Below are positions 5,931 through 62,728 of a stretch of 64,000 nt of DNA, piece by piece; the first letter of the stretch is position 1, and each line of letters begins with the position of its first letter. A program made the translations under genes and the position numbers. Source of the DNA: Minisyncoccota bacterium (lineage in GTDB: Bacteria; Patescibacteriota; Minisyncoccia; Moranbacterales; UBA2206); contig JARLIA010000005.1 in NCBI GenBank assembly GCA_031291955.1, forward strand, positions 9,214-73,213, given 5' to 3'. Under the pieces are notes generated by a model. It searched no databases. It was not told where the DNA came from and worked only from the letters and a program-made list of their open reading frames with translations.

Positions 5931-7236
5931 AGTTTTCGGCGGCGCTCTGGCCGGAAGCGTGTCCGGTAGTCCAGGCGATCTGGAGATTGTATCCGCCAGT
6001 CGGACCGTCCAGATCCAAAACTTCTCCGGCCAAAAAAAGATTTTTGACGATTTTGGAGCGCATCGTTTGGGGGTCGACTTCTTTGAGACTCGCTCCGCCG
6101 CGGGTGACCATGGCCTGATTGAAATCCAAGAGCGACGCGACCGTTAAGCGGAGATTCTTCATGAGCCGAATGAGATCCGTTCTCTCGGCTCTGGTTACGG
6201 AATGAATTTTTCTGTCTTTTTCGATCCCGGCCAGTTCCATTATTTTTTCCGCCAGCTTTTGCGGGAAATATTCGCCGAGATAATTTTTCAGATCCTTCTT
6301 TTTGTGCCGGTCGAGATCGGTTTTGAATTTTTTTTCGAGCTCTGAAATATCAAGCGCGGGCAAAAGATCAAGCTCTAAAAAAACTTTATCATCCCCGAGA
6401 TGTTCGCCGATGAATTTGCTGGCATTGATGATGGCTGGACCGGAAATTCCGAAATGGGTGAAAATTATTTCGCCTATCCCGAGATTGATCCGGCGATTAT
6501 TCCGGACAAGATATATCCCGGCGTCGGCGAGACTTATGCCTTGCAAATCTTTAACCCAGGTTTCTTTTGTTCTTACCGGAACCAGGGCTGGAGCAGTGGA
6601 GACGAGAGTGTGTCCGATAGCTGCGAGCCAGGAATATCCGTCGCCGGTCGAACCGGTGGCCGGATATGATTTTCCGCCAGTGGAAAGGATAAAATTGGCG
6701 GCCTGAATTTTCTCTTTTCGTAGAGACGCATTGCAATGGGGAGACGCGATTAGTTGCGTCTCTACGACATTTATATAATCTATTTTTCCGTCTTTCATTT
6801 CCAAACCAATCACATTCCGGCCGAGCATTATTTTCACTTTGTTTCTCTTTAAGGCTTTCTCCAAAACGTCAAGGACATCTCGGGCTTTGTTACTGGCCGG
6901 AAAAACGCGGCCGTCTTTTTCTGTTTTCAGCCGGATACCCAAGTCCTCAAAAAAATCCATCGTTTCATGCGGGCCGAAGGCGGCAAGAGCGGAAAAAAGA
7001 AATCGGCCGTTTTTCCCGAGCTTCCCGATAAAATCGGATTTAGAAAAATTAGCCTGAGTGAGATTGCAGCGGCCATTTCCAGTCAGCAGCAGTTTTTTTC
7101 CCAGCGAATTGTTTTTCTCGATAAGCGCTACTTTCTTTCCGCCTTCACTGGCGCAAATAGCGGCCAGCATGCCTGCCGCTCCGCCGCCGATCACGGCGAT
7201 GTCGAAATGTTCGGTTTTAATCTTAGCGGTCTGCAT
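5911..7236 (-). CDS. FAD-dependent oxidoreductase, HI0933/BaiN-like (aminoacetone-oxidase family)
   Basis: 441 aa. Begins with the dinucleotide-binding motif DIAVIGGGAAGMLAA, then GNGRCNLT, which is typical of the HI0933 family. Confidence 0.85.
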   Translation of the reverse strand: MQTAKIKTEHFDIAVIGGGAAGMLAAICASEGGKKVALIEKNNSLGKKLLLTGNGRCNLTQANFSKSDFIGKLGKNGRFLFSALAAFGPHETMDFFEDLGIRLKTEKDGRVFPASNKARDVLDVLEKALKRNKVKIMLGRNVIGLEMKDGKIDYINVVETQLIASPHCNASLRKEKIQAANFILSTGGKSYPATGSTGDGYSWLAAIGHTLVSTAPALVPVRTKETWVKDLQGISLADAGIYLVRNNRRINLGIGEIIFTHFGISGPAIINASKFIGEHLGDDKVFLELDLLPALDISELEKKFKTDLDRHKKKDLKNYLGEYFPQKLAEKIMELAGIEKDRKIHSVTRAERTDLIRLMKNLRLTVASLLDFNQAMVTRGGASLKEVDPQTMRSKIVKNLFLAGEVLDLDGPTGGYNLQIAWTTGHASGQSAAENFDKHPE

Positions 7237-7363: not shown

Positions 7364-7618
7364 CTAATCATCTTTCCGTTTAGGCCATAGTCCCATGGCT
7401 ACATTTGGAAGGAAATCAATAATGTCAACAGTGCCTTCTAAAAGATAATCGCAGGCGCAGTAGGCGCCGATTAAAACAATGCCCACCGGTATGGCGACGC
7501 TGATAATATCCGCCGTTTTTTCTCCAAAAGAAATACCCGTTACATCTTCAATGGCCATTAAACCGCACCTGGTCATTTTAATGCCCGGTTTCAATTTGTA
7601 AAGAACTTTCCTGATCAT
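7364..7618 (-). CDS. hypothetical small membrane protein
   Basis: 84-aa ORF with one hydrophobic segment. No homologue recognised. Confidence 0.3.
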   Translation of the reverse strand: MIRKVLYKLKPGIKMTRCGLMAIEDVTGISFGEKTADIISVAIPVGIVLIGAYCACDYLLEGTVDIIDFLPNVAMGLWPKRKDD

Positions 7619-26356: not shown

Positions 26357-26393
26357 TCGCGTAACGCGTAACTCGTAACGCAAGATGTGAAAT

Positions 26394-26927
26394 ATGGAAA
26401 ATAAATTTAATTTAAACAGAAAATATTTTCTCGTAGTAATATTGTTAATAACGGGCGGATTGTTCATGGCTACTGCCGCACAGGCGTTTTGTCCGGTGTG
26501 TACGATCGCGGTGGCCGGCGGAGTGGGACTGTCACGCTGGCTCGGAGTAGACGACACGATCACCGGCCTTTGGATCGGCGGGCTTCTGATTTGCATGGTT
26601 GTTTGGACATTGGACTGGTTCGACAAGAAAAAAATCGATTTCGTAGCGAAAAAAAGCGTGACCACAGTCGCGTGGTATCTGATGGTGGTTGCACCGCTCT
26701 GGTGGGAAGATATAATCGGTCATCCGCTGAATCGCATCTGGGGCATGGACAAACTGGTGGTCGGCATCTTTTTCGGAAGCGTCTTTTTTCTTCTGGGCGG
26801 AGGACTGCATTTCACTCTTAAGAAAAAAAATGGCAACAAAGTCTATTTTCCCTTTCAGAAAGTGGTTTTTGCGGTTAGTCCGCTCATTGTTTTGAGCGCG
26901 GTTTTCTACCTTTTGGTCCGACGGTAA
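26394..26927 (+). CDS. polytopic membrane protein with a CPVC motif
   Basis: 177 aa, 4-5 TM helices, with CPVCT at the start of TM1. It is adjacent to the thioredoxin-like gene. Confidence 0.5.
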   Translation: MENKFNLNRKYFLVVILLITGGLFMATAAQAFCPVCTIAVAGGVGLSRWLGVDDTITGLWIGGLLICMVVWTLDWFDKKKIDFVAKKSVTTVAWYLMVVAPLWWEDIIGHPLNRIWGMDKLVVGIFFGSVFFLLGGGLHFTLKKKNGNKVYFPFQKVVFAVSPLIVLSAVFYLLVRR

Positions 26928-26956: not shown

Positions 26957-27550
26957 ATGGAAACAAACAATAATCCCGTCAAAAATCTCAACGAGCTGAT
27001 TGAAAAAGTGGACGCCATGAAAAAACAGGACAAGCTGGATTTGTCGTCCGATCAGGATTTGACCATTGCCATCATGAACCTGGTGAGTATCGAAGAGCAT
27101 TTTTTCTTTACCGGCGCGAAACTCGGGAAGCCTGAATATTTCGACCTTCTTCAAGAAGCGCGCAAGATGCGCGGAGATTTGCTTCGAAAAATCGTGAAAG
27201 ATCCCGAAGGAGAAGTCTGGTGCATCTCGAAACACTTGCTGGCAGCTTCCATGCGTCTTATGGAAGTGGGCACCAAACAGCAGGGGATGGGCAAGAAGGA
27301 GGAGGCGCGGGAATTTTTCCAAAAAGCCTATGACCTCTATTCTCTTTTCTGGGGAATAAATATGAAAGTGATTTCCACCGATAACGTAAAAAAAATCGAC
27401 GAAGGGGCCATGAATGTTCATGACAAAGAGCCTAAGCCCGCCCGCAACGCTTCGCAAGCGGGCGCTGGCTCGCGTAGCGATGCGGGCGGGGGCTTTATGG
27501 GAAAATTGGGCGAACTGGTCAGGAAAGCGGTGGATTGCTGTATCGAATAG
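26957..27550 (+). CDS. hypothetical protein carrying an in-frame GC-rich palindromic element
   Basis: 197 aa. No family recognised. The C-terminal segment PARNASQAGAGSRSDAGGG is encoded by the element at 27437-27492. Confidence 0.5.
   Translation: METNNNPVKNLNELIEKVDAMKKQDKLDLSSDQDLTIAIMNLVSIEEHFFFTGAKLGKPEYFDLLQEARKMRGDLLRKIVKDPEGEVWCISKHLLAASMRLMEVGTKQQGMGKKEEAREFFQKAYDLYSLFWGINMKVISTDNVKKIDEGAMNVHDKEPKPARNASQAGAGSRSDAGGGFMGKLGELVRKAVDCCIE
27437..27492. repeat. GC-rich palindromic element, copy 1, lying in-frame inside a CDS
   Basis: The arms cccgcccgcaacgcttcgc and gcgtagcgatgcgggcggg are 17 of 19 complementary. The same arms occur at 47815-47893. Confidence 0.6.
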
Positions 27551-27635
27551 TCATTTTAACACGTTAGCATATTAACATATTAGCATCGAAAATTTTGTTA
27601 AAATGTTAATATGTTAAAATGTTAATATGCCTCGG
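27551..27635. repeat. AT-rich palindromic element built from TTAACAT/ATGTTAA heptads, copy a
   Basis: cattttaacacgttagcatattaacatattagcat...ttgttaaaatgttaatatgttaaaatgttaatatg. The left half is the reverse complement of the right half. Confidence 0.55.
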
Positions 27636-27696: not shown

Positions 27697-28455
27697 ATGA
27701 GGAAAAAACATCTCATTATTATGCTGGCAGCAGTTATATTGGTGCCGCTGGCGACAGTCCAGGCCGATACTAACGCGACTACTGGCGCTGATTGCGGCAG
27801 TGCGCCCGCTCATCCAACCGCCGCCAGTGGAAACGTGCTGACTCAGGCGCAAATGCAGGCGTTTCGGCAGGCCATGCAAACATATAACAGGTGCAGGGGC
27901 ATTGCACCGGGCCAGGGTCATGGCGCCGGAATGCTTCGTGGTCTGGACAAGGGCGCGAACGGAACAAACGGCGCGAACGCGCAAGTCAATAAGCAAGACC
28001 GTTGCACCATGATCAACCAGCGCCTGACCAATCGAGTCAGCGTTTTTCAGAACAACCAGAGCAATGACAAGACCATTTTCGGCAATCTGTCTAATCGCTT
28101 GAGTAATATCCAAGTGCGTCTCAAGAACGCCGGGATTAATACGGACACTCTCTCGAGCGACCTGTCGACTTTGCAAGGCGACATCAATCAAGTGAATTCC
28201 GATTATGCAAAATTCATCAGTGGCTTGCAATCCGTCCAAAGTTCCAGCGCGACGTGCGGTGATTCCAATGGCCAATTCATGACCAATCTCAAATCAGCCC
28301 GCACTATTTTGACAACCGTGCGCGCCGATCGGCAAACAGTCCGTAGCTATGTGACCAGTACGATTGTTCCGGAAATAAACACCCTGCGCCAGCAGTTGCA
28401 AAACAAAAACGGATCCAGCACTTCTTCCACCAGCACCAGCACCTCTTCCAATTAG
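27697..28455 (+). CDS. secreted hypothetical protein
   Basis: Signal peptide, a Q/N/S-rich middle, and an S/T-rich tail. Confidence 0.6.
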   Translation: MRKKHLIIMLAAVILVPLATVQADTNATTGADCGSAPAHPTAASGNVLTQAQMQAFRQAMQTYNRCRGIAPGQGHGAGMLRGLDKGANGTNGANAQVNKQDRCTMINQRLTNRVSVFQNNQSNDKTIFGNLSNRLSNIQVRLKNAGINTDTLSSDLSTLQGDINQVNSDYAKFISGLQSVQSSSATCGDSNGQFMTNLKSARTILTTVRADRQTVRSYVTSTIVPEINTLRQQLQNKNGSSTSSTSTSTSSN

Positions 28456-37958: not shown

Positions 37959-38110
37959 TCATTTGTGGAGAGGGGAATAGCTGGTATAATAATAGTAGCA
38001 ATTCGCGCCGACGGGATTGATGGTGGAATAATTTTCAATGATTCAATTTAAAATTTTAAATTAAGATTTCACTTTAAATTTCAAATTCTAAATTTAAAAA
38101 TTATAAAAAA

Positions 38111-39268
38111 ATGCCCAACAGAAAAACAATCTTCCTGGTACTAGTTTTCTGCGGGCTTTTCGGTCTGGCGAAAAGTTCGCTGGCGGTGCCGAGTATTTCC
38201 GGCTTTTCCGGGACGGTGGTCAACGAATCATCAATCACCATATCGGGGAGTGGTTTTCAGAGTAAAGCCACGGCTAAGCCCCTGTTATGGGCTGATTTTG
38301 CGGAAGGAAATACCAATCCTTCATCGCTCGGCCAGATTACATCCTGGGATATCGCAGAAAGTCCAGTTCTAGACTCAAGTCCTTCCATTGACTGCCACTC
38401 GTCTCATTGCATGACATCTGGCTCACAATTCTGGTACAGCAATGGCGGTAATGGTATGGCAATGGGTATCAATCCCGCGGGATTGGTCGGGACTTACGGT
38501 CAACAGATGTATATTAATTTTTGGAGAAGGATTGACAGCCATTATGCCTCGGAAATTCAGACCAGCCAAGGGCCTAACGTGAAATGGCTAAGAATTTGGG
38601 GGAACGACACAAACCCGCCGCACGGATACCCCGATACATATACCTCTCAAGTACAATGCGACGGAGGGAATCCGATTTACACGGAAATGGCCGGTTCATG
38701 GGAGGTGTGGCCCGGTAGCTGGATTCTTCCCACGACCACTTGGAAAAATGAGGAATACATATATAAATACAATAGTGCGGTCGGTCAAGCCAATGGTGTA
38801 TTTGATATTCAAATGAATCAGATAATGGAGTCAACGTCTACTAATTGGCAATCCGATTCTTCATCATACCCACTGACAGGTCAGGGTGATATTGATATTC
38901 AAGATGAATTCAGCCCGGAAACTTGCGGTTCAGACTCGTCATATATGCCGCAATCACCCGATGCAGTCTGGTATGACGGCATTTATATTGACGACACGTG
39001 GCAGCGGGTGATGATTTGCGATTCTTCAACCTGGGCAAGCAGAACGCACTGCGAAATCCAGATTCCCTCCGCCTGGTCGGATAACGGAACCGCGGCATCC
39101 ATAACGGCTACCGCTAATCAAGGATCATTCCCCGACGGTTCTACCGCCTATCTCTACGTCGTCGATTCAACCAACACCACCAACGCCTCCGGCTATCCGA
39201 TCGCCTTCGGTTCTTTCGGTTCCGGCACCGCTGTTCCCAACAGCCCGACGGGACTGAGTGTGGAATGA
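38111..39268 (+). CDS. secreted hypothetical protein ending in ...VPNSPTGLSVE
   Basis: Signal peptide. No enzymatic motif recognised. The C-terminus resembles the first strand of an FN3 domain. Confidence 0.6.
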   Translation: MPNRKTIFLVLVFCGLFGLAKSSLAVPSISGFSGTVVNESSITISGSGFQSKATAKPLLWADFAEGNTNPSSLGQITSWDIAESPVLDSSPSIDCHSSHCMTSGSQFWYSNGGNGMAMGINPAGLVGTYGQQMYINFWRRIDSHYASEIQTSQGPNVKWLRIWGNDTNPPHGYPDTYTSQVQCDGGNPIYTEMAGSWEVWPGSWILPTTTWKNEEYIYKYNSAVGQANGVFDIQMNQIMESTSTNWQSDSSSYPLTGQGDIDIQDEFSPETCGSDSSYMPQSPDAVWYDGIYIDDTWQRVMICDSSTWASRTHCEIQIPSAWSDNGTAASITATANQGSFPDGSTAYLYVVDSTNTTNASGYPIAFGSFGSGTAVPNSPTGLSVE

Positions 39269-48288: not shown

Positions 48289-51200
48289 ATGACAAAAATA
48301 AAAAACGGAATCTTGCCAAAGTTGTTCATAAAAACATTTGTTTTCAGTGTGTTTGGCGCACTGACTTTTTTTAGTGGTTCGTCTTTTGCGAATGCGGGAT
48401 CGGTGCCTGGAGCAGTTATGGACCACATGACCGTCCGCTACAACAATTCTCCGACCGTTAGTCTTAACTCCGGCGACACCAAGACCATTTCCATCAATGC
48501 CGATGATTCTTCCGGCAACACATTTATTTCATACACTGGCGACCAATCCATCACTCTTTCCGGCGCTTCCGCTACTGAGAGTAATCATCCGACCTGCACG
48601 GACAAAGACGGCAACCCAGTTGCTTTCGGCACCGCCATGACGCTCAACTTTGTGAACGGCGTGGCTACTTGCGACATGACCCTCTATAAGGCCGAGATGG
48701 CCCATATTAATGCTACCGACGGGACTTACAGTTCCAGCGGCGACAGCTCCTACGGACTGGATGCGACGATAAGCAGTATGGATCATCTGACGGTCCGCTA
48801 TGGCAATTCTTCGTCTATAACGGGTGATATGTGGACGACTAATCTTGATGACAAAACGGTCTCCAAAGTAACTCCGAACGGAACAGCTACTACCTACGAC
48901 GGGACAGGAAGCTATCCCAGTAGTATTGCTTTTGACGGAACCAATATGTGGGTAGCTAATGCTTTTGGCAATTCTGTGACTGAAATTGCTCCGGACGGAA
49001 CCATGGCCACCTATGCCGGTACAGGCAGAGGGCCTAATGGTATTGCTTTTGACGGGACGAATATGTGGACAGCTAATGATAATAATTCAGTCACTAAAAT
49101 TGCTCCGGACGGAACCATGACCACCTATACTGGGACGGGAGGAGAGCCTTTTGGTATCGCTTTTGACGGGACGAACATGTGGACATCTAATGATGACAGT
49201 TCGGTCACTAAGGTCGCCCCGGACGGAACCATGACCACCTATGACGGTACCGGGGTTGATCCTTATGTCATTGCTTTTGACGGGACCAACATGTGGACGG
49301 CTAATTACAGCGACAATTCCGTTACTAAGGTCGCCCCGGACGGAACCATGACCACCTACACCGGGACAGGGAGTAATCCTGGTGGCATTGCTTTTGACGG
49401 AACCAACATGTGGACAGCTAATTCTAGCGACAATTCTGTTACCGAGATTGCTCCGGATGGAACCATGACTACCTACACCGGGACAGGGAATAATCCGGTT
49501 AGTATCGCTTTTGACGGGACCAGTATGTGGACAGCCAACATGGGCGACAATTCTGTCACCAAGGTTGTCCCGGATGGAGCAATGGCTACTTATGACGGGA
49601 CAGGAACGGAGGGAAGTAGGACTTACGCTATCGCTTTTGATGGTTTCACGTTGCCATACGATGGACATGGCGCAAGCCATCAATCTTCAACCGTCACCAT
49701 GAATTCCGGCGACACCAAGACCATTTCCATTAACGCCGATGATTCTTTCGGCAACACATTTACTTCATACTCCGGTGACAAGAGCGTTACTCTTTCCGGC
49801 GCTTCCGCTGCTGGTAGCAATCATCCGACCTGCACCGACAAGGATGGCAATCCTGTTGCTTTCGGCACTGCCATGACTTTGAATTTTGTGAGCGGCGTGG
49901 CTACTTGCGACATGACCCTCTATAAGCCAGAGACGGCGCACATTGACGCTACCGACGGGACTTACAGTTCCAGTGGCGACAGTTCGTATGGGCTGGATGC
50001 GACGGTGGATGGAAGCGAAACCCCGCCAGACACTCCAACTCCGCCAGATACTCCAATCCCTCCAAATTCAGAGGATGTTTGTTCGGAGGGGGAGTCTCAT
50101 CATCTTGACTTGTCTGATAGCGGCAAAAAAAACAGGCTGACTTTCAGTGCGCGCATATCTTCCGGTGATTCGGAAACATCGGACAGCATTTCATCCGGAA
50201 AAGACCAGAATACTCGTCTATACAAAGCGGAAGTGAAAGCAGACGGAAATTCGGAAATTTGCGGATCATTCACGGTGAATAAAATCAATAATCTGCCTGC
50301 CAGAATAAAATTGCCCAAGGAATATTCCCAGTGCAGTGTTTATCGTTATCTCGATATTCAATCAAAAAATGATTTTGACAACAGTGATGTCGACAAGGCC
50401 ACGCTTTGGTTCCGCATCAATAGTAAATGGGAATTAGACAATAATATAGCCAACCCAGTGCTTGTTCAAAGCGATGCTCATGACAACAAAATACTGAATT
50501 TCAAAAAAGACAAGAAATATTCAAATGGTTATATCTACAAAGCTGACTCGTCCAAGCTTTTTGGTCATTGGACGATCTTAGGTTGTCCTGCTTCGAAGAA
50601 AATTATTCCTCCGGTTGTTACGCCGGCCAAACTGGAAAACCCGCCAACAACTCATTTCAACCGCGACAATTCGTCCGTTCCGGTTGTGACCAGCGGTGTC
50701 CTGCCGGAAAGTTCAAATACTCCCGAAAAGGCGTTGGAAAAAACAACATCAACTCCCGCGCCGGACAGAGGATCTATCCTTGGCGTCTGGGCGTCCAATT
50801 TGGTCTCTAAAAATTTCCCTGCAGTCAAATCTATCCCGGCCGCTTTCATGCTGATAAGTTTCATCCAGTTTTTGGCGCTTCTCAATAATGCCAAAGATCT
50901 GCCGGTCATGATGCGTCAATCTTTTCCTTGGATTTTCGGCATCATCGGCAAGAGAAAGAAGGAACGGATGGATTGGGGGATTGTCTACGATGTTGACACC
51001 GGAAAACCTCTCTCGCTGTCGACTGTGCGGATCGTGGATGAGAAGAGCGGTCGCGTCAAAGAAACTAAGGTGACGGACAAATACGGAGCCTACTATTTCC
51101 TGGTTCCCGCGGGCGACTACCATCTTGATCTGGAAAAGAAAGCCTACGCGCCGTTCCAGATTGCAAGCCTTTCAGCGATTCCCGCGTTTTATTCGCCAGT

Positions 51201-51705
51201 CTTCAATTACGCGCCTTTCTCATTTCAGGAAGATGAAAAGGTGGATTTCTTTCTCTCAATGCGGAAAGACAAGCCGTCGTGGACAAATTTCCTGAATCGA
51301 TCCTGGCTGACTGGCTTTTTCAGGCTAATCTTCTGGCTTGGCTTCTTCCTGGACATCTTCATTACCATTATCGCGCCCACGCCGCTCAATATTCTTCTGC
51401 TGCTTGTCTATATCTATCTAGGTTTCCTCCGGAACATGTTCTTGGATGGCCTGAAATGGGGACGCGTTATCAACAACGACGGGACTAGCCAGCCTTTTTC
51501 CACTATCAAGCTGATGAAGAACGGCGAATTGGTCACCCGAGCCGTTTCTGACGAGAAGGGTCGTTATTTCCTGGTGGCCAATCCCGGCAATTACACTTTG
51601 GAAATCACCACTCCGACCAGCACCAGCGGTCAAGTGCTCTCCGGCAGAAGAAGCGTCTCGCTGAGGCGAAGAGCTTCAATTAAGGAAATCGTGATAGTGA
51701 AGTGA
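48289..51705 (+). CDS. giant secreted/membrane protein: duplicated Ig-like module, 9-bladed NHL/YVTN-type beta-propeller, PT-rich linker, C-terminal TM segments and carboxypeptidase-regulatory-like domains
   Basis: Nine repeats of NSVTK(I/V)APDGTMTTYTGTG..P.GIAFDGTNMWTAN. A ~110-aa module is duplicated at 48430-48770 and 49690-50010. Linker PPDTPTPPDTPIPP. Confidence 0.8.
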   Translation: MTKIKNGILPKLFIKTFVFSVFGALTFFSGSSFANAGSVPGAVMDHMTVRYNNSPTVSLNSGDTKTISINADDSSGNTFISYTGDQSITLSGASATESNHPTCTDKDGNPVAFGTAMTLNFVNGVATCDMTLYKAEMAHINATDGTYSSSGDSSYGLDATISSMDHLTVRYGNSSSITGDMWTTNLDDKTVSKVTPNGTATTYDGTGSYPSSIAFDGTNMWVANAFGNSVTEIAPDGTMATYAGTGRGPNGIAFDGTNMWTANDNNSVTKIAPDGTMTTYTGTGGEPFGIAFDGTNMWTSNDDSSVTKVAPDGTMTTYDGTGVDPYVIAFDGTNMWTANYSDNSVTKVAPDGTMTTYTGTGSNPGGIAFDGTNMWTANSSDNSVTEIAPDGTMTTYTGTGNNPVSIAFDGTSMWTANMGDNSVTKVVPDGAMATYDGTGTEGSRTYAIAFDGFTLPYDGHGASHQSSTVTMNSGDTKTISINADDSFGNTFTSYSGDKSVTLSGASAAGSNHPTCTDKDGNPVAFGTAMTLNFVSGVATCDMTLYKPETAHIDATDGTYSSSGDSSYGLDATVDGSETPPDTPTPPDTPIPPNSEDVCSEGESHHLDLSDSGKKNRLTFSARISSGDSETSDSISSGKDQNTRLYKAEVKADGNSEICGSFTVNKINNLPARIKLPKEYSQCSVYRYLDIQSKNDFDNSDVDKATLWFRINSKWELDNNIANPVLVQSDAHDNKILNFKKDKKYSNGYIYKADSSKLFGHWTILGCPASKKIIPPVVTPAKLENPPTTHFNRDNSSVPVVTSGVLPESSNTPEKALEKTTSTPAPDRGSILGVWASNLVSKNFPAVKSIPAAFMLISFIQFLALLNNAKDLPVMMRQSFPWIFGIIGKRKKERMDWGIVYDVDTGKPLSLSTVRIVDEKSGRVKETKVTDKYGAYYFLVPAGDYHLDLEKKAYAPFQIASLSAIPAFYSPVFNYAPFSFQEDEKVDFFLSMRKDKPSWTNFLNRSWLTGFFRLIFWLGFFLDIFITIIAPTPLNILLLLVYIYLGFLRNMFLDGLKWGRVINNDGTSQPFSTIKLMKNGELVTRAVSDEKGRYFLVANPGNYTLEITTPTSTSGQVLSGRRSVSLRRRASIKEIVIVK

Positions 51706-53423: not shown

Positions 53424-53455
53424 AGGCAGTATCTCGTCTCTACGAAAATCAAAAA

Positions 53456-53482
53456 CCACCCCATTTTCAGGGGTGGTTTTTT
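53456..53482. terminator. bidirectional intrinsic terminator
   Basis: Hairpin ccaccccattttcaggggtgg, flanked by an A-run and a T-run. Confidence 0.6.
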
Positions 53483-53496
53483 ATCAAGAAAATAAA

Positions 53497-53841
53497 CTAT
53501 TTCACGTTCTCGATGAATTTGGCAAAAACTTGTGGGTTTTCGACGGCCATTTGAGAGAGTACTTTGCGGTCCACCTCAATCTTCTTGTCGGTCATCAGGT
53601 GAACGAGCTGGCTATATTTCATTCCCAGCTCTCTGACGGCGATGTTGAGGCGGGTGATCCAGAGACGCCGGGTGGTTCTTTTTTTGGTCCGGCGGTCGCG
53701 ATAAGCGTAGGTGCCAGCCTTAATTACCGCTTGTTTAGCGGCTCGGTAGGTCTTACTTCTTCTCCAGCGATAACCTTTGGCGTCGGCGAGGAGATTCTTT
53801 CTTCTTTTTGAGGCGGCCAGGCCGCGTTTTACTCTAGTCAT
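53497..53841 (-). CDS. rplT: 50S ribosomal protein L20
   Basis: MTRVKRGLAASKRRKNLLADAKGYRWRRSKTYRAAKQAV.... Confidence 0.95.
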   Translation of the reverse strand: MTRVKRGLAASKRRKNLLADAKGYRWRRSKTYRAAKQAVIKAGTYAYRDRRTKKRTTRRLWITRLNIAVRELGMKYSQLVHLMTDKKIEVDRKVLSQMAVENPQVFAKFIENVK

Positions 53842-53936
53842 TTTAACATTTTAACATTTTAACATATTAACAAAAGAAAATTAGCATTATAGAACGTTAA
53901 CGTTGTTGAAATGCTAATATGTTAATATGTTGAAAT
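53842..53936. repeat. AT-rich TTAACAT/ATGTTAA palindromic element, copy b (between rpmI and rplT)
   Basis: cattttaacattttaacatattaaca...tgctaatatgttaatatgttgaaatg. Its minus-sense end runs straight into the rplT ATG. Confidence 0.55.
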
Positions 53937-53942
53937 GATCTT

Positions 53943-54150: not shown

Positions 54151-54693
54151 TTATTGCGGGGTGATTATTACGTTAAATCCGCCGGGGAATCTTTTGAGTT
54201 CCTGTTCAACTTTGTTGGGAACAGAAATGGAGCGCATAAAATCAGTTAGATTTTTTCGAGCCAAATCTTGGTGGGCTTTTTCCCGGCCACGGAGATGAAT
54301 TTCTATTTTAACTTTGTTGCCTTTAGCTAAGAATTTTTCGGCCTGGTTCTTCTTGAATTCCAAGTCGTGCTCGTCAGTCCGGACGCCCAGGCGGATGCCT
54401 TTGATCTCGGATTTTTTCTGTTTGGATTTGTTCTGGCGGTCTTCCCTGGATTTCTGATATTGATATTTGCCGAAATCCATGATTTTGCAGACCGGTGGGA
54501 CGGCTTTCGGGGCGATCTCAACCAGATCGGCGCCGCGCTCTTTGGCAAGAATGATCGCTTGAGGCACACTCATGACGCCCAGCTGTTCGCCGTCTTCGCC
54601 AATAATCCGGGCTTCTTTGGCCCAGATATGTTCATTTATTCTAGTTCGCAGCTCTTTCTTCTTGGGAAGCGGCCGGCGGTATGTTCTTCTTAT
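54151..54693 (-). CDS. infC: translation initiation factor IF-3, with a non-AUG start
   Basis: The track ORF starts at the Met of GVMSVPQAII, but the frame stays open upstream and encodes ...RRTYRRPLPKKELRTRINEHIWAKEARIIGEDGEQLGV, which is the conserved IF-3 N-domain. The start is most likely AUA (54691-54693) or AUU (54637-54639), as is usual for infC. Confidence 0.85.
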   Translation of the reverse strand: MRRTYRRPLPKKKELRTRINEHIWAKEARIIGEDGEQLGVMSVPQAIILAKERGADLVEIAPKAVPPVCKIMDFGKYQYQKSREDRQNKSKQKKSEIKGIRLGVRTDEHDLEFKKNQAEKFLAKGNKVKIEIHLRGREKAHQDLARKNLTDFMRSISVPNKVEQELKRFPGGFNVIITPQ

Positions 54694-54714
54694 GGGTGTA
54701 TATTACTGATTATG

Positions 54715-55104
54715 TGGAGATGGCGAGAATCGAACTCGCGTCCAAAATCATTCTAAAAAAATAATCTACAAGCTTAGCCTGTTTGGTAGTTTTGGCTGAG
54801 GATAGAAACAGACAAAATTACCTCAACCTATTCTCGAATTAATTTTACTAAAATTGCTCGAAAAAGACAATCCCAGCTAGCCCTATATTTGGCACCAGGG
54901 TCTGTCTATGGGGCGTCGACAGTCTGATGGCTAAAGCGATTAAGCTAAAGCGTAAGCGTAAGACGGAGCAAACGCCGAAGCGATCGCGGTCTTAGCTTTG
55001 GTTATAAAGTTTGCATTTATAACGTTTGATAGTGGATTAACGAGACAGCATCTTGCTCGGCTTGCCTATTTTAAAAGTACGATCTGTCGAAACCAAACAT
55101 CCCC
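54715..55104 (-). ncRNA. ssrA: tmRNA (transfer-messenger RNA)
   Basis: The 5' end GGGGAUGUUUGGUUUCGACAGAUCG matches the tmRNA consensus GGGGCUGAUUCUGGAUUCGAC. The 3' tRNA-like domain is GCGAG-UUCGAUU-CUCGC-CAUCUCC-A. The acceptor stem is GGGGAUG/CAUCUCC with a G3-U wobble. The tag ORF resumes at GCA AAC and ends ...SYAYALA-UAA. Confidence 0.8.
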
Positions 55105-55112
55105 TGATTCGG

Positions 55113-55559
55113 TTAGAAATTTTTCAGCGCTCTTCGCATTCCTCGCTCGTCCTCTCTCTTTTTGATTTTCTCGCGCTTGTCGAACTTCTTTTTTCCCTTT
55201 CCTAAGCCAAATTCAAGTTTGATGAGTCGTCTTTTAGTATACATCTGAACCGGCACTAATGTCAAGCCTTCCGTGCGGGCCTGGCCGATGAGTCTTTTGA
55301 GCTCCAACCGGCGGACTAGGAGTTTTCGCGGCCGGGCCGGATCGTAGCTAGGAACTTTCCCGGCGTGTTTATAAAGTGGGATATGGGCATTGGTTAGATA
55401 CAATTCGTTACCATGGATTGTAACAAAAGCTTCTTTCAAGCTCACATGCCCGGCTTTGACTGATTTGACCTCGTGTCCAAGAAGCGCCAAACCGGCCTCG
55501 TATTTCTCGAGGATCTCATAGTCGAAATGGGCGCGTTTATTAATGGCGAGAGTTGGCAT
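55113..55559 (-). CDS. smpB: SsrA-binding protein SmpB
   Basis: MPTLAINKRAHFDYEILEKYEAGLALLGHEVKSVK.... Its stop lies 8 nt upstream of the tmRNA 5' end. Confidence 0.9.
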   Translation of the reverse strand: MPTLAINKRAHFDYEILEKYEAGLALLGHEVKSVKAGHVSLKEAFVTIHGNELYLTNAHIPLYKHAGKVPSYDPARPRKLLVRRLELKRLIGQARTEGLTLVPVQMYTKRRLIKLEFGLGKGKKKFDKREKIKKREDERGMRRALKNF

Positions 55560-56257: not shown

Positions 56258-56283
56258 AAAAGACTCGCTCAGGTCTTGAGCGA
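56258..56283 (-). terminator. intrinsic terminator after efp
   Basis: Hairpin gactcgctcaggtcttgagcgagtc, followed by a U-run in minus sense. Confidence 0.55.
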
Positions 56284-56304
56284 GTCTTGCTGATTTTATG
56301 GTTC

Positions 56305-56862
56305 TTAGGCCCGTCCCACGTATTCGCCGCGTTCGGTGTTCACGATGATCTCATCGCTCTCATTGACAAAGAGAGGAGCGGAGACTTTAAGTCCGGTTTC
56401 CAAGGTTACGACTTTACCGCCGGTGGAAACAGTGTTGCCGCGGACGCCGGGCGGCGCTTCGATCACTTTCAAAGTCACCTTTACCGGCAGTTCAATGTTG
56501 ATTGGTTGGCCGTTGAAATTTAGGAGGGTCACTTCAGTGCCTTCCTTGAGATAATTCACATTGTTACCCAGTGCTTCGGAGGACAGTGAGAACTGTTCGT
56601 AGTTATCGTTATCCATGAAATTATAATCATCGCCTTCGCGGTAGGTGTATTGCGCTTTAGATTTGGCAATGTCCGCCTCATAGACGGCCTCCGATCCTTG
56701 GAAAGTTTTTTCCTGGACCGCGCCGGTAATCAGGTTTTTGAGTTTGGTACGCAAAACCGCTCCGGGTCGGCCGGTTTTGGAATGTTCATGATGGACGACT
56801 ACATAAGGCGTGTCGTTCCACAAGATATTTTTTCCAGTTTTGATGTCGGAAAGAGAAAGCAT
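56305..56862 (-). CDS. efp: elongation factor P
   Basis: 185 aa. KTGKNILWNDTPYVVV...GRPGAVLRTKLKNL includes the conserved beta3-beta4 loop. Confidence 0.95.
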   Translation of the reverse strand: MLSLSDIKTGKNILWNDTPYVVVHHEHSKTGRPGAVLRTKLKNLITGAVQEKTFQGSEAVYEADIAKSKAQYTYREGDDYNFMDNDNYEQFSLSSEALGNNVNYLKEGTEVTLLNFNGQPINIELPVKVTLKVIEAPPGVRGNTVSTGGKVVTLETGLKVSAPLFVNESDEIIVNTERGEYVGRA

Positions 56863-56945
56863 ATTAGCATTTTAGCATATTAACATTTTAACAATAAAAA
56901 CTTAGCATATTGCTGATATGCTGACATGCTAAAATGTTAACATGA
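56863..56945. repeat. AT-rich TTAGCAT/ATGCTAA palindromic element, copy c (between rpsR and efp)
   Basis: attagcattttagcatattaacattttaacaat...atgctaaaatgttaacatg. It abuts the efp ATG. Confidence 0.55.
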
Positions 56946-57167: not shown

Positions 57168-57226
57168 AAGTATTTACCGCATCAAGTTAAAAGTCTAACT
57201 TTTAACTTTTACTTTTTAACTTTTAA

Positions 57227-57736: not shown

Positions 57737-57807
57737 AATATTCTCGTAACGCGAAACGTGGAGCGCGAAACGGAGTCGTTACGCGTTATGTGTTACGCGT
57801 TTTGCGA

Positions 57808-58365
57808 TTAGATATTAAGTATTTCTTCCAATTTTTTGTCAATGTCTTCGTTTTGCTTTTTCTGGTCTTCCTCGCTTTTTTCTTCGGGAGCTTCTTCTTG
57901 GAGCGTTTCGGCAGCTGGCTTCTCTTTTGGAGCTGCTTCAACGGTTTCCTTTTTCTTTTCAATCGGCTTCACTTCGGTCGGTGCTTTTTCTTTGGCTGTC
58001 TTTTCTTCTTTTCTTCTTTGCGGCGCGCTTTCTTTTTGGAGTGCTTCATTGATCCTTTCTTCTTTGGTTTTCAGTTCCGGCAGTTCCGAAGCCCGGCTCA
58101 AGAGGAAGCGTAGAACTCCACCGTTCAGATTAAGCTTGCTGCTTATGTCATTCAAACTCTCCGCGTTCTCCAGCTCGAACCGAGAAGCGACATAGACGCC
58201 GTGGGTGTCGTGCTTGATCTTGTAGGCCAACTTTCTTTTCTCCTGGGTTTCTTTCTCCTCAAAAACCCCGCCGGCTTCGGTGACCAGCTTCTTGATTTCC
58301 GCTTTCACTTTTTCGACTTCGGCTTCCTTGGAACCGCTGATGAGGTAAAACAGTTCGTATCTCAT
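57808..58365 (-). CDS. rpsF: 30S ribosomal protein S6 with a long K/E-rich C-terminal extension
   Basis: MRYELFYLISGSKEAEVEKV...HGVYVASRFE. It sits in the conserved rpsF-ssb-rpsR order. Confidence 0.9.
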   Translation of the reverse strand: MRYELFYLISGSKEAEVEKVKAEIKKLVTEAGGVFEEKETQEKRKLAYKIKHDTHGVYVASRFELENAESLNDISSKLNLNGGVLRFLLSRASELPELKTKEERINEALQKESAPQRRKEEKTAKEKAPTEVKPIEKKKETVEAAPKEKPAAETLQEEAPEEKSEEDQKKQNEDIDKKLEEILNI

Positions 58366-58398
58366 ATTATCATTTTAACATATTAACATTTAAACAAA
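58366..58398. repeat. AT-rich TTAACAT element, half-copy d, at the rpsF start
   Basis: The minus-sense sequence gtttaaatgttaatatgttaaaatgataatATG leads directly into rpsF. Confidence 0.5.
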
Positions 58399-58402
58399 AA
58401 CC

Positions 58403-58432
58403 GCCGACAGAAAGTCCTTGGCGGATGATTTT
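58403..58432 (-). terminator. terminator/attenuator-like hairpin 5' of rpsF
   Basis: The minus-sense sequence ccgccaaggactttctgtcggcgg followed by UUUUUG lies immediately upstream of the AT-rich leader element. Confidence 0.4.
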
Positions 58433-58700
58433 CCTCTTATCTCACCTCGCCGAAGCTTTAGCGCAGGCGGGTCGGTATGTCTTAGCATACCGGTCCGCTT
58501 CTGTCCAAAAGACTACAGCGTGACAAGCGAGAGGAAAGTGGGACTTTCTAGGTTGGTTAAATTGTAGTTGTTATTTCGCTATCCGTCAATATTGACAGGA
58601 AATGTCTTTTGTGATAGGGTGATATGATTGCTGGAAATGACCGGCAATCGAGGAAAAAGAAGTTTTTTTAAAACATTTTTTAAGAAAAAAGGAGAAAACG

Positions 58701-59726
58701 ATGAGTAACGCCATCGGAGCAGAAGCGGCCAAATTGGCTGGTCTGCAAATCGACACACTTACAAAGCTCCGCAAGGGGGAAGTGACTCTTAGTGAGTGGG
58801 AATGGTTTCTTAATCTCACTAAAGAAAAGCGGAACGAGCTCTCAGGGATTTCCGTCCCTGCAAAAAACCTCAACCTAAAAAAGTTTCTGATCTGGCTCAA
58901 AAAAAATGAACTGGAACAGAAGCTTCCGGGTGGATTGATAGAGCAGATTGCCGAACAGGAAATTTTCTATCGCCGGTTTTATGGTTCGGATTTCCGTATC
59001 GACCTTAAGAAAATCTCCATCAATCCTCGCAGGTTGCCGGCTATCAAGGCCGGACTGGAAGCGGGCTGTGTCAACTACGCGCTCGTCAAGGCCACGCCAG
59101 TTTTATTTGGCGCTCAACCACTGATGACTGGCGCGGAGTTTTTTTATGAACTGATCGTAAAATGGCTTCGGAAAGAGGACTTTAAAATTTGGGCGGAGAC
59201 CGGCACAGATCGGTGGACGAAACTCACTCTTTTGGAGTTGCTCCAGCGATGCCATCCCGTTGAACCGGAAGTCTTCAACGGAGAAGCCTTCAAGGTCGAC
59301 TGGGCGAAGGAAGAAATACGTGTCATTGACAAAATAGTGCCTTCGTCCAAGGTGATGACCGGCATAGTTGATCTGGTTTTTACAAATGACGCCGTGGATA
59401 TCCCCGCCGACCAGACCATTGTCAACAAGGATGGTCAGATCGTGAAACTTTCTGATCGCTCGTACATTTCGGCGATCGAGCAGAAAGTGCGAGTTCTTTC
59501 GCAGGAAGAGGGAATAGTCTTGGCGAGCCAACTTTTCGCCAGAGACAAAACCTATCTCGCTCCCGATACTTGGGAGTGGAGAAGGGATGTTATCGACCAT
59601 CGTGACAAAGGCACGAGTCCCGGTGTTTCGATTGGCGTTTCCAGTTCGCACGTCGTCGAGCTCCTCCTCAGCTCCCGCGATGCCGACGGCTCCTTCGGCA
59701 GCGGCCGGTTGCGTCTCGCTCTATGA
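58701..59726 (+). CDS. DGR target (variable) protein
   Basis: 341 aa, no signal peptide. The last 33 codons (VR, 59624-59723) correspond to the Asn-codon-rich TR. Confidence 0.7.
   Translation: MSNAIGAEAAKLAGLQIDTLTKLRKGEVTLSEWEWFLNLTKEKRNELSGISVPAKNLNLKKFLIWLKKNELEQKLPGGLIEQIAEQEIFYRRFYGSDFRIDLKKISINPRRLPAIKAGLEAGCVNYALVKATPVLFGAQPLMTGAEFFYELIVKWLRKEDFKIWAETGTDRWTKLTLLELLQRCHPVEPEVFNGEAFKVDWAKEEIRVIDKIVPSSKVMTGIVDLVFTNDAVDIPADQTIVNKDGQIVKLSDRSYISAIEQKVRVLSQEEGIVLASQLFARDKTYLAPDTWEWRRDVIDHRDKGTSPGVSIGVSSSHVVELLLSSRDADGSFGSGRLRLAL
59624..59723 (+). repeat. DGR variable repeat (VR)
   Basis: tgtttcgattggcgtttccagttcgcacgtcgtcgag...ccggttgcgtctcgctcta. The 3' 22 nt are identical to the TR, which is an IMH-like end. 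Confidence 0.85.
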
Positions 59727-59740
59727 TTTCGGGTTCAGAT

Positions 59741-59831
59741 TTCCCGCCGCAGGCGGGAAGGATTTTCTCGCGAAGCGAGAAAGGATTCCGGATTGATTCT
59801 TCACCCCGCAGAAACATTGCGGGGTTTTTTT
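59741..59831 (+). promoter_or_regulatory. post-VR hairpins (ttcccgcc-GCAG-ggcgggaa; tctcgc-gaa-gcgaga) plus an intrinsic terminator ccccgca-gaaacat-tgcgggg-T7
   Basis: The 8-bp GC stem with a 4-nt loop 17 nt after the VR mirrors the hairpin/cruciform needed for target recognition in the Bordetella phage DGR. Confidence 0.55.
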
Positions 59832-60054
59832 ATATCAAAATATTCTTGAGAGGAAAAAAATATGCTAGAATAACTTTGAGTTCAGCAGGATTTTCGTACG
59901 CGGAATCCTCCTCATACAAAACCCGAAGTTCAGCGCGGTTTCAGGGACGGAGAAAAATTAAATTATGTTAGCGTCCAAACGGAGTTCCGAAACAACGGAA
60001 TATAAAAAGAAGAGCGATCTTCTTTTTGAAATCAAGGACGGAACAGCGCTATTT

Positions 60055-60154
60055 TGTTTCGATTGGCATTTCCAATTCGAACGACAACGAGCTCAACCTC
60101 AACTCCCACGATGCCGACAACTCCAACAGCAACAACCGGTTGCGTCTCGCTCTA
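60055..60154 (+). repeat. DGR template repeat (TR)
   Basis: tgtttcgattggcatttccaattcgaacgacaacgagctcaacctcaactcccacgatgccgacaactccaacagcaacaaccggttgcgtctcgctcta is rich in AAC. All 18 mismatches to the VR fall on TR adenines. Confidence 0.85.
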
Positions 60155-60424
60155 ACACTTCGGGCCTTTTGTTTTCAGCCACTTTCCGATATCTTTTCCA
60201 ATGGAAGCGATAATTTCAAAATGAGCCGAATACCAACCACGGGAAATTAATTTTTTATCCACAGAGATTCGCAAAGATTTTTTAAATAAGTCAAAATTAG
60301 CGCTGGCTAAAGAGAGGTATGTCGGGCTATAAATCGAAATTAATGCGGCCTTGTGTGCATCGTTAAGAAATTCTAAAATTTCTTTTCCCAAGAGATTTTT
60401 ATCTAGTTTGGGAAAATTTTTCAC
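60152..60424 (-). CDS. hypothetical ORF between TR and RT. It could be an Avd-like helical accessory protein, but it is on the opposite strand and has a GTG start
   Basis: 90 aa, predicted all-helical and basic. No strong motif. Confidence 0.2.
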   Translation of the reverse strand: MKNFPKLDKNLLGKEILEFLNDAHKAALISIYSPTYLSLASANFDLFKKSLRISVDKKLISRGWYSAHFEIIASIGKDIGKWLKTKGPKC

Positions 60425-60500
60425 GCTGTCATAACAATCTGAATATAGTTTTTCGAGATTGATAAATAATCTAGGTTTGTTATCTTTATGAACAACATCA

Positions 60501-61538
60501 GTGCCGGAAACTCCGTTGGGGGGGGGCTTTAAAAGGAACGTTTGTCATAGTATTTTCGATGAAATTATTAGCCTGGAAAACTTATTTCTGGCTTGGCGGG
60601 AATTTCGAGAGGGGAAAAGAAAGAAACCGGATGTTCAAAAATTCGAGTTCGATCTCGAAGATAAGCTATTTCAGTTGCACCGTGAATTAAAAGATAAAAC
60701 CTACAAACATTCCCATTATACCGCGTTTAACGTCTGCGATCCAAAACTGCGGCGGATTCATAAAGCGTGCGTCAGAGATCGCGTTCTTCATCACGCTATT
60801 TTTCGAATCATTTATCCTATTTTTGACAAGACTTTCATTTTTGATTCCTATTCCTGTTGAAGCGAAAAAGGAACGCATCGAGCAGTTTTAAGATTGGAAC
60901 AATTCTGCCGAAAGGCTAGCCGAAATAATCATAGAAATATTTTTGCGCTTAAATTAGATATTAAAAAATTCTTTAATTCCATCGACCAAGAAATATTATT
61001 GAAGCTTATTCAAAAGAAAGTTGATGACAAAGATGCCGTTTGGCTGGTTGAGAGGATAATTGGAAGTTTCGAACCGGGCTTGCCACTGGGAAATGTGACC
61101 AGCCAGATATTTTCCAATATTTATCTCAATGAACTTGATTGGTTCATCAAGCACAAATTAAAAATCAAATATTATCTACGTTATTGCGATGATTTTATAA
61201 TTTTGTCTGAAGATAAAGAATGCTTAGAAAAATTAATCCAGAAAGTTGGCGATTTTTTGGAAGAAGATTTAAAATTAACGCTCCATCCTGATAAAATAAT
61301 AATCAGGAAATGGAAACGGGGGATTGATTTTTTGGGTTACGTCGCTTTGCCGCATTATCGGGTATTGAGAACAAAAACAAAGAAAAGAATATTGAAAAAA
61401 ATTAAACAAAAAAAGTTAAGTCTGGACAAAAAAATGATTTCTCAAAAATCTTTCGAGACTAGCGTGCAATCATATTTTGGCGTTTTGAAACATTGCCGGG
61501 GATATAAAATCAAGAAAAAAATCAATTTTATATCTTAA
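60501..61538 (+). pseudogene. DGR reverse transcriptase, interrupted by an in-frame TGA at 60858-60860, with a G9 tract at codons 6-9
   Basis: RT motifs: 1/2 RRIHKACVRDRVLHHAIF; 3 ALKLDIKKFFNSI; 4 GLPLGNVTSQIFSNIYL (DGR-type [ILV]GxxxSQ); 5 YLRYCDDFII; 6/7 LHPDKIIIRKWKRGIDFLGY. The frame is the same on both sides of the TGA (...FDSYSC*SEKGTHRAV). The homopolymer g9 is at 60518-60526. Confidence 0.75.
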
Positions 61539-62592: not shown

Positions 62593-62728
62593 AGAAGTTG
62601 ATTATTGTGGGTGATGCTATTACCATATAATAGTATTATGATTGAGGCAAATAGTGTGAAATTTTAAATTTTAAATTTAAAATCAAATTAAAATTCATTT
62701 CAAATTTATAATTTAAAATTATCTCGCC

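Follow-up and report, generated by a model that had tools for sequence, protein, structure and literature searches.

Periodic palindromes of short tandem units in operon spacers of Patescibacteria, best read as a new variant of MITE/REPIN-like repeats

Genomes of the candidate phyla radiation are usually described as streamlined and repeat-poor, and to our knowledge nothing is known experimentally about the start of transcription and translation without Shine-Dalgarno (SD) pairing in these bacteria. In other bacteria, palindromic non-coding repeats are well represented by the Correia elements of Neisseria (CREE/NEMIS), which are ~100-150 bp long, have inverted ends and are present in many copies. 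They insert near genes, where they may provide promoters directed outwards, and their transcripts fold into hairpins. Their terminal inverted repeats measure 26 bp, their target duplication is TA, and an IHF site is located in their conserved core. The REP/BIME and REPIN families are species-specific extragenic palindromes, the inverted doublets of which form ~100-nt hairpins. They reside between co-directional or convergent genes without target duplication; each REP has a short, GC-rich stem, is marked by a GTAG or CGTC tag and is associated with a RAYT transposase (PMC3116915, PMC3733652). As far as gene starts are concerned, a -10 box located 6-8 nt from the start codon is a signature of leaderless transcription (PMC6028130), and the loss of the anti-SD sequence has been documented for about half of Parcubacteria (PMC9297842). 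We found no description of the elements reported below in the literature on leaderless transcription, SD usage, MITEs and palindromic repeats in Patescibacteria.

In this contribution, we describe four loci in a 64-kb window (the whole stretch of DNA that was analyzed, to which all positions refer) where an 8-bp unit, TTARCATN or, read on the other strand, NATGYTAA, builds three imperfect palindromes of 85-100 bp and one half copy (Table 1). The loci look like dispersed, fast-turnover palindromic DNA repeats of many candidate-phyla-radiation bacteria and not like dedicated control elements of ribosomal genes, and the periodic palindromes as a class are best read as a new variant of MITE/REPIN-like repeats. 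The fuller account, according to which the four loci are non-coding, DNA-level MITE/REPIN-like periodic palindromes that arose by inter-locus copying and are not translation leaders, with a putative promoter signal as a side effect, is considered here about as likely as not.

Table 1. Positions of periodic elements and associated signals in the window
Feature	Positions	Strand	Remarks
TTARCAT periodic palindrome, whole rpmI-rplT spacer	53838-53938	.	RNA fold -24.2 kcal/mol, z -4.4
Parts of the rpmI-rplT element	arm 53838-53873, centre 53874-53902, distal arm 53903-53938		
TTARCAT periodic palindrome, whole rpsR-efp spacer	56860-56944	.	RNA fold -29.5 kcal/mol, z -5.8
Arms of the rpsR-efp element	56860-56896 and 56908-56944		
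TTARCAT periodic palindrome between two plus-strand genes	27549-27632	.	RNA fold -29.7 kcal/mol, z -6.5
Single TTARCAT arm (half copy), directly 5' of rpsF	58366-58398	minus	
Extended -10-like TGTTAAAAT at rplT	53848-53856	minus	hexamer TAAAAT 53853-53848
Extended -10-like TGCTAAAAT at efp	56869-56877	minus	hexamer TAAAAT 56874-56869
Extended -10-like TGTTAAAAT at rpsF, inside the half copy		minus	hexamer TAAAAT 58377-58372
Terminator-like hairpin CCGCC...GGCGG, then TTTTTGTTT	58392-58424	minus	immediately 5' of the half copy
Palindrome of like architecture, AACGCG/CGCGTT-type units, rpsF-ssb spacer	57737-57807	.	20 Watson-Crick pairs, single hairpin
Period-7 AAAGTTA/TAACTTT array with small hairpin, ssb-rpsR spacer	57168-57226	.	

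The window contains 35 matches to TTARCAT compared to 16.3 +/- 4.0 in shuffled sequences, none of which reaches 35. The four clusters hold 22 of the 35 matches, and a density scan revealed no further comparable cluster in the window. The first-pass annotation had described four loci made of reiterated heptads, all of which are present; the heptad holds as the core of the unit, but the true repeat period determined with TRF is 8 bp, i.e., a heptad plus one variable base. Its view of three loci as imperfect palindromes and of 58366-58398 as a single arm was also borne out. The arms of the three long copies are 36-37 nt long, are 78-83% complementary, contain ~4 units each and are separated by 29, 10 and 11 nt, so that terminal inverted repeats, a feature of classical MITEs, are present in all three. 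When the window copies are aligned, they have the unit arrays alone in common, while their centers and flanks are unrelated. A search for target-site duplications at the flanks of the three full copies yielded no common direct repeat, and a sequence logo has no information content outside of the arrays, whose borders are fuzzy and form no defined termini. The earlier suggestion of a MITE-like repeat is therefore correct in part: the elements are dispersed, palindromic and turn over fast, but target-site duplication, defined termini and near-identical copies are missing. No transposase or recombinase domain was found among the ~49 proteins of the window, and no Y1 transposase (RAYT) was seen there.

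Pfam matches identify the flanking genes as those of L20, L35, IF3, EF-P, S18, SSB and S6, which are arranged on the minus strand in the orders infC-rpmI-element-rplT and rpsF-ssb-rpsR-element-efp. The proximal arm of the first of these elements has the NATGYTAA orientation towards rplT on the minus strand, and the elements do run into the start codons of rplT, efp and rpsF as had been claimed, with the last unit directly adjoining the ATG in all three cases. The palindrome at 27549-27632 is flanked by plus-strand genes 26957-27550 and 27697-28455; there is no real gene start at either of its arms, and a Pfam search of both flanking proteins revealed no family. The window stems from a patescibacterial genome. 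Its EF-P has a counterpart of 100% identity in a "Candidatus Pacebacteria" MAG, followed by relatives with the label Moranbacteria or Parcubacteria. A non-ATG start is usual for infC, and the Pfam IF3_N match of the window infC (54151-54573) begins at profile position 23 of 70; the true start is probably a non-ATG codon 5' of the first ATG. Elsewhere in the window, the tmRNA gene (55113-55559) begins 8 nt after the stop codon of smpB (54712-55104) on the same strand, and a 1138-aa ORF at 48289-51705 contains a tandem repeat (48923-49604) with a period of 117 nt (39 codons) and ~5.9 copies.

Periodic arrays made of other units are also present in the window. The palindrome in the rpsF-ssb spacer, which was absent from the first-pass list, has a homologous element in a related locus (L126). 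The ssb-rpsR spacer, earlier taken for a degenerate relative of the heptad arrays, is a member of the broader class that lies outside of the TTARCAT family, with a period of 7 and no TG/ATG core. In addition, AT-rich short-period arrays (AAATTTT/TTTAAA type, period 6-8) at 38042-38109 and 62659-62721 lie directly 5' of genes at 38111 and 62729, and a direct array of CGCGTAA (26358-26381, 3.4 copies, period 7), which resembles the ACGCG-type units of the rpsF-ssb palindrome, lies just 5' of a gene at 26394.

Comparison with related genomes revealed that the gene junctions are retained and the spacers are not. In syntenic loci of relatives with 79-89% identical EF-P, the gene order is kept and the TTARCAT element is absent, which is the observation that the earlier note had itself named as speaking against a regulatory role. 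The rpsR-efp spacer is only 6 nt long in L003 and 20 nt long in L001, and it ranges from 0 to 132 nt when loci L124-L126 and about 70 metagenomic loci are considered. The long spacers are nearly always imperfect palindromes of tandem 7-9-bp units, and the unit is lineage-specific, e.g., TACGAA, CATGTT, AACGCG, TTTGAAAT, TTGGAAAT or ATGCAAAT. A TTARCAT element does occupy the rpsR-efp junction of the more distant L128 (76% EF-P identity) and is lacking in closer relatives, which implies that this junction has been colonized repeatedly. The rpmI-rplT spacer of the window is 101 nt long, in agreement with the split of about 100 bp that had been reported, but the two genes are not normally contiguous in this clade, since their spacers in relatives consist of 56, 90 and 77 nt of unrelated sequence. 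A GC-richer palindromic repeat (gtcatcctgagcgaagcgaaggatc... / ...ggatgacaa), which is another dispersed family, was observed near rpsR-efp in L143, L149, L193, L195 and L196.

A single long hairpin is present in 53 of 176 distinct co-directional spacers of 55-170 nt, where it extends from a median of ~4 nt past the stop codon to ~7 nt short of the ATG. When the arms are compared with themselves, the best period is 7-8 bp in 62 out of 106 cases versus 24 out of 106 for shuffled arms. In a sample biased to co-directional spacers, 17 of 209 of these, 1 of 31 divergent and 0 of 49 convergent spacers contain periodic hairpins, and the sole divergent case is a miscalled rpsS-rplV junction. A purely DNA-level parasite would not be expected to show such a near-restriction to co-directional spacers, although the bias of the sample has to be kept in mind. 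In each of L128 and L130, one element is present as near-identical full-length copies in two neighboring spacers, indicating copy-paste, by mobility or conversion, for unit families other than TTARCAT. Near-identical non-orthologous TTARCAT copies were sought inside the sampled genomes and none was found, so there is no sign of recent TTARCAT transposition in any of them; TTARCAT copies of different genomes have a common 80-bp consensus architecture at 80-86% identity.

The exact three-unit TTARCAT pattern occurs at more than 119 loci in GTDB species representatives; ~50 of the matches listed are in Patescibacteria MAGs, Moranbacteria-like ones among them, often several per genome, with at least 10 tiles carrying the pattern in GW2011_GWF2_35_54. 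Several unlinked loci per genome carry this unit family in more than 25 genomes. Among 57 arrays, 12 have an in-phase ATG behind their last unit from which a long ORF extends, and a further ~14 have a start codon within 9-32 nt. By our reading of the context table, ~20 solo arms point NATGYTAA-wise towards a gene start within 60 nt and 8 point away; ~20 arms face gene 3' ends. The neighboring genes encode RecG, ClpB, a radical-SAM activase, enolase, RelA/SpoT, Pth, NusG, YchF and thioredoxin-reductase-like and endonuclease-IV-like proteins, together with the ribosomal proteins L28, S13, L11, S20 and L22, and one palindrome is located between the tRNA-Ile and tRNA-Phe genes. Genes of ribosomal proteins account for ~6-7 of 23 identified neighbors outside of the window and are thus over-represented without being the rule. 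The element at pth is 100% identical over ~128 nt in two species, the flanking coding DNA of which is mostly ~86-98% identical; this, together with the narrow range of arm length (4-5 units), hints at constraint and not at neutrality. A second conserved repeat (ctccactcgtatatttttgagtacaaaaatata.tcggtcgaaatgaca) is found immediately 5' of several TTARCAT arms in GW2011_GWF2_35_54 and UBA9337 (Moranbacteria), at L054 ~1150-1230, L106, L098 ~6300-6370 and L109 ~7480-7550. Many genomes of Bacteroidota contain tandem 8-bp (GCTAATRT)n arrays of up to 16 units (L005, L012, L013, L039, L040, L045, L058, L061, L088, L112 and others). They have the opposite orientation (TTAGCAYA towards the gene) and lie 3-20 nt 5' of start codons. 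Such arrays may represent a microsatellite that has nothing to do with TTARCAT, or a phenomenon that arose in parallel in a second SD-poor phylum.

We propose that TTARCAT is the most widespread flavor of a class of periodic palindromes in this clade of Patescibacteria, whose genomes would differ in the 7-9-bp unit and whose members would repeatedly occupy very short spacers between co-directional genes. New copies would arise by inter-locus copying, either by an enzyme provided in trans or through gene conversion, their arms would then lengthen or shorten by slippage, and the copies would persist where they are harmless. That the elements end at start codons is mainly explained by the length of the ancestral spacers (0-20 nt), and their extent from stop to start by settling in the very short spacers of compact operons, which is sufficient alone.

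Since the elements had been described as sitting exactly where SD sequences would be, it is tempting to assign them a role in translation initiation. It is true that rplT, efp and rpsF have no GGAGG-like SD, but this is not special to them: a GGAG, GAGG or AGGA motif is found at -20..-4 in just 3 of the 49 window genes, whose upstream regions are 45% A. In view of this number and of the anti-SD loss in Parcubacteria, the lack of an SD is a property of the genome and not of the element, and the placement at the SD site is true yet uninformative because the genome hardly uses SDs. The SD-site position in front of translation genes is no evidence of translational control here, and this tempting over-interpretation is hereby corrected.

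In one respect, however, the unit is probably not neutral. Its logo is A(.86) T(.99) G(.97) Y T(.99) A(.90) A(.90) W, and two consecutive units spell TGYTAAWAT, which is the extended -10 consensus TGnTAnnAT. T2, G3 and T5 are nearly invariant, the variable positions of the unit fall on the least constrained positions of TGnTAnnAT, and consecutive TGYTAAWAT motifs overlap by one T, which results in the 8-bp period. At rplT, the hexamer is followed by the 6-nt spacer GTTAAA and the ATG (53841-53839); the respective spacers are GCTAAT at efp (ATG at 56862-56860) and GATAAT at rpsF (ATG at 58365-58363), so that TGnTAnnAT with a hexamer 6 nt from the ATG is found at all three genes. Of the near-identical orthologous loci L054 and L106, one has TATAAT where the other has the end of the array, with the 7-nt distance kept, and at non-array genes of related MAGs, -10-like hexamers peak at spacers 6-7 (28 and 17 versus a background of 8.75). 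No leaderless geometry was found at non-array genes of the window, and no -10-like hexamer in other unit families. A generic promoter/terminator scan was uninformative at the elements. We also considered a -35 element for the array hexamers, but the TTGTTA/TTAACA spacings are 13-14, 19 or 21-22 bp and never 17. A mini-ORF allowing reinitiation (AUG UUA AAA UGA over the start codon) fits rplT and rpsF but not efp, whose upstream AUG begins an ORF of 23 codons in another frame.

Judging from these motifs, the TTARCAT copies may be internal promoters for leaderless mRNAs. A copy would then act as a portable outward-facing promoter, with transcription starting at or beside the AUG, and the leaderless mRNA produced would suit a lineage that does not use SD pairing. 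The full combination, in which TTARCAT arrays are portable leaderless-start cassettes and the periodic palindromes constitute a new non-autonomous superfamily of operon spacers, is put forward only tentatively, as a less probable proposal than the account given above. If it is true, a mobile palindrome with 4-5 overlapping extended -10 motifs per arm would direct RNA polymerase to start at the adjacent AUG or at the +1 of a tRNA, and the conservation of architecture with free unit sequence would define a new bacterial non-autonomous superfamily adapted to operon-internal spacers. If the promoter reading is right, the elements also provide a directly testable model of leaderless expression in uncultured bacteria.

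The same observations could mean that the arrays are selected promoter modules and not selfish DNA, i.e., reiterated extended -10 sequences in front of highly expressed genes, from which leaderless or near-leaderless transcripts would start, with the palindromes being two back-to-back promoters. The fit of the unit to TGnTAnnAT with a period of 8 arising through overlap, and the TAAAAT-N6-ATG arrangement at rplT, efp and rpsF as well as at the S20 gene in L105, which agrees with the published leaderless spacing of 6-8 nt (PMC6028130), are what such modules should have, but palindromes of non-promoter units fill the same spacers in relatives, and closer relatives live without any element. Likewise, arrays are in phase with the ATG and biased in orientation to gene starts, yet in most cases the other arm is directed at the 3' end of the preceding gene. 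The array 5' of tRNA-Phe, the fully conserved pth element of two species and the over-representation of ribosomal-protein genes among neighbors can all be cited for selection; the array-free window genes without leaderless geometry count against it, as does the fact that rplT and efp are inside operons that end in canonical GC-rich terminators (listed by the scan after efp, 56260-56288, and after rplT, 53451-53481) and need no promoter of their own. On balance, we consider selected promoter modules unlikely.

The situation at rpsF is particular, since the terminator-like hairpin directly 5' of the half copy, which is kept in L001, L003, L124 and L126, leaves ~35 bp for any rpsF promoter, inside the arm only. 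Further upstream on the minus strand, there is a promoter-like TTGACG-N17-TACAAT at 58589-58561, which is a good sigma-70-like match. L001, L003, L124 and L126 have retained the ends (CTAnAAAGTCC ... GGACTTT ... GGCGGTTT) of the ~150-nt region between this promoter and the hairpin (58400-58560), just 5' of rpsF. The region has the appearance of a small RNA or leader that has escaped annotation, and an Rfam search with it gave no match even at E<=1. Between ychF and rpsF, the window contains a 341-aa ORF of unknown function (58701-59726) and an RVT_1 reverse transcriptase (60894-61538) that probably continues from 60501-60860. In relatives, ychF adjoins the rpsF region, and L001 has an RVT_1 and bAvd cassette elsewhere; the 58701-61538 segment may therefore be an insertion of a diversity-generating retroelement.

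A role of the elements at the RNA level appears improbable. In E. coli, rpmI-rplT expression involves translational coupling or unmasking, and by analogy a ~35-bp mRNA hairpin could join the stop codon and the AUG of neighboring genes or serve as an RNase III site. The hairpins indeed span the spacer from ~4 nt after the stop to ~7 nt before the ATG and occur almost only between co-directional genes. A check of palindrome folding had been suggested, and the folds of the window palindromes are significant (-24 to -30 kcal/mol, z -4.4 to -6.5), but they show no selected RNA pairing: their significance stems from inverted arrays of one motif and not from conserved pairing. In 13 TTARCAT palindromes, the arms of one element are 0.845 identical compared to 0.841 +/- 0.013 between elements, and the variable positions of paired arms match at chance level, i.e., there is no co-variation. 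Single mismatches in the hairpins on the sense strand include 29 G.U and 28 A.C, the mean MFE is -25.00 kcal/mol for sense and -25.01 kcal/mol for antisense strands (Wilcoxon p = 0.91), and 170 G.U pairs on the sense strand stand against 183 on the antisense strand. With no G.U excess and no difference in folding between the strands, no RNA structure is apparently under selection. A hairpin device is, moreover, impossible for solo arms and for the element between two tRNA genes. No intrinsic terminator (GC-rich stem with a U tract) was found at the elements by the promoter/terminator scan. RNase III is retained in the phylum Patescibacteria (PMC12641178), which would fit the processing variant of this explanation.

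About equally improbable is that the palindromes are a local mutational by-product without function, which grew in place by slippage and template switching at start or stop codons with no copying between loci. Unit sequences specific to locus and lineage and the fuzzy array borders would follow naturally, as would several families with an ATG in phase with the start codon (L125, L134) and relatives whose efp starts with ATGTTAAAT or ATGCTAAAT, which is itself one unit. Growth in place does not, however, account for one unit family at several unlinked loci of a genome in more than 25 genomes, for the near-identical full-length copies in adjacent spacers or for the 80-bp consensus architecture that genomes have in common at 80-86% identity. 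Finally, the lineage-specific leader or operator of translation genes, one of the two alternatives of the first-pass annotation, would involve a protein, be it ribosomal or a factor of its own, that recognizes the units on DNA or RNA and controls rplT, efp and rpsF. This reading is largely refuted and hardly credible any more. Translation genes do follow three of the four copies in the window, ~6-7 of 23 identified neighbors elsewhere are ribosomal-protein genes and the constant number of 4-5 units per arm would be in line with an oligomeric binder, but relatives lack the element at these genes, most neighbors are unrelated genes, neither an Rfam family (the known L20 leader included) nor a signature of selected pairing was detected, and the units change between close genomes far faster than expected of a protein-site pair.

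Whatever their origin, the fast-evolving palindromes present across the clade inside ultra-conserved ribosomal operons offer a marker for strain-level evolution. Their several in-phase ATGs per arm make miscalled gene starts likely.

Several known systems can be compared with the elements of the window. The L20 and S6:S18 ribosomal-protein leaders are likewise located 5' of rplT or rpsF, but the window element lies between rpmI and rplT and not 5' of infC/rpmI, and it matches neither leader in Rfam sequence or structure. An Rfam scan of the window at gathering thresholds yielded the tmRNA and one tRNA only and no leader, the known L20 leader included, and an E-value search of 58360-58640 gave no match, which agrees with the earlier statement that the elements do not resemble known ribosomal-protein leaders. 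The orthologous conservation and compensatory changes of such leaders are not seen in the window elements. Three other likenesses were considered and rejected. The CIRCE/HrcA operator (TTAGCAC...GTGCTAA) is similar in part, but its CTC/GAG parts and N9 spacing are missing; an analogy to integron attC sites, with conserved structure and free sequence, fails as the flanking genes form a conserved syntenic operon and not cassettes. The TIGR-Tas arrays of parasitic bacteria, whose units are 36 nt long and contain box C/D motifs, have no relation to the elements (PMC12045711).

Close counterparts also exist among DNA repeats and promoters. Classical MITEs occur as near-identical copies with conserved internal sequence, which is true of the unit families in L128 and L130 and not of TTARCAT. 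Correia elements are also palindromic non-coding repeats of similar size near genes, with inverted ends, many copies per genome, potential outward promoters and hairpins in their transcripts; in contrast to them, the window copies have no target duplication and no core, their ends are fuzzy and their arms are tandem 8-bp units. With REPs and REPINs, the window elements have in common that they are species-specific extragenic palindrome families between co-directional or convergent genes, with inverted doublets that form hairpins of ~100 nt and no target duplication, but their arms are AT-rich, consist of TTARCATN units only and have no GTAG/CGTC tag. The extended -10 promoters of leaderless genes (GeneMarkS-2 'group C', PMC6028130) have the same TGnTAnnAT motif and 6-nt spacing as found in the window; however, the known leaderless promoters are single sites, whereas the window motif comes in 4-5 overlapping repetitions, usually with an inverted array as its partner.
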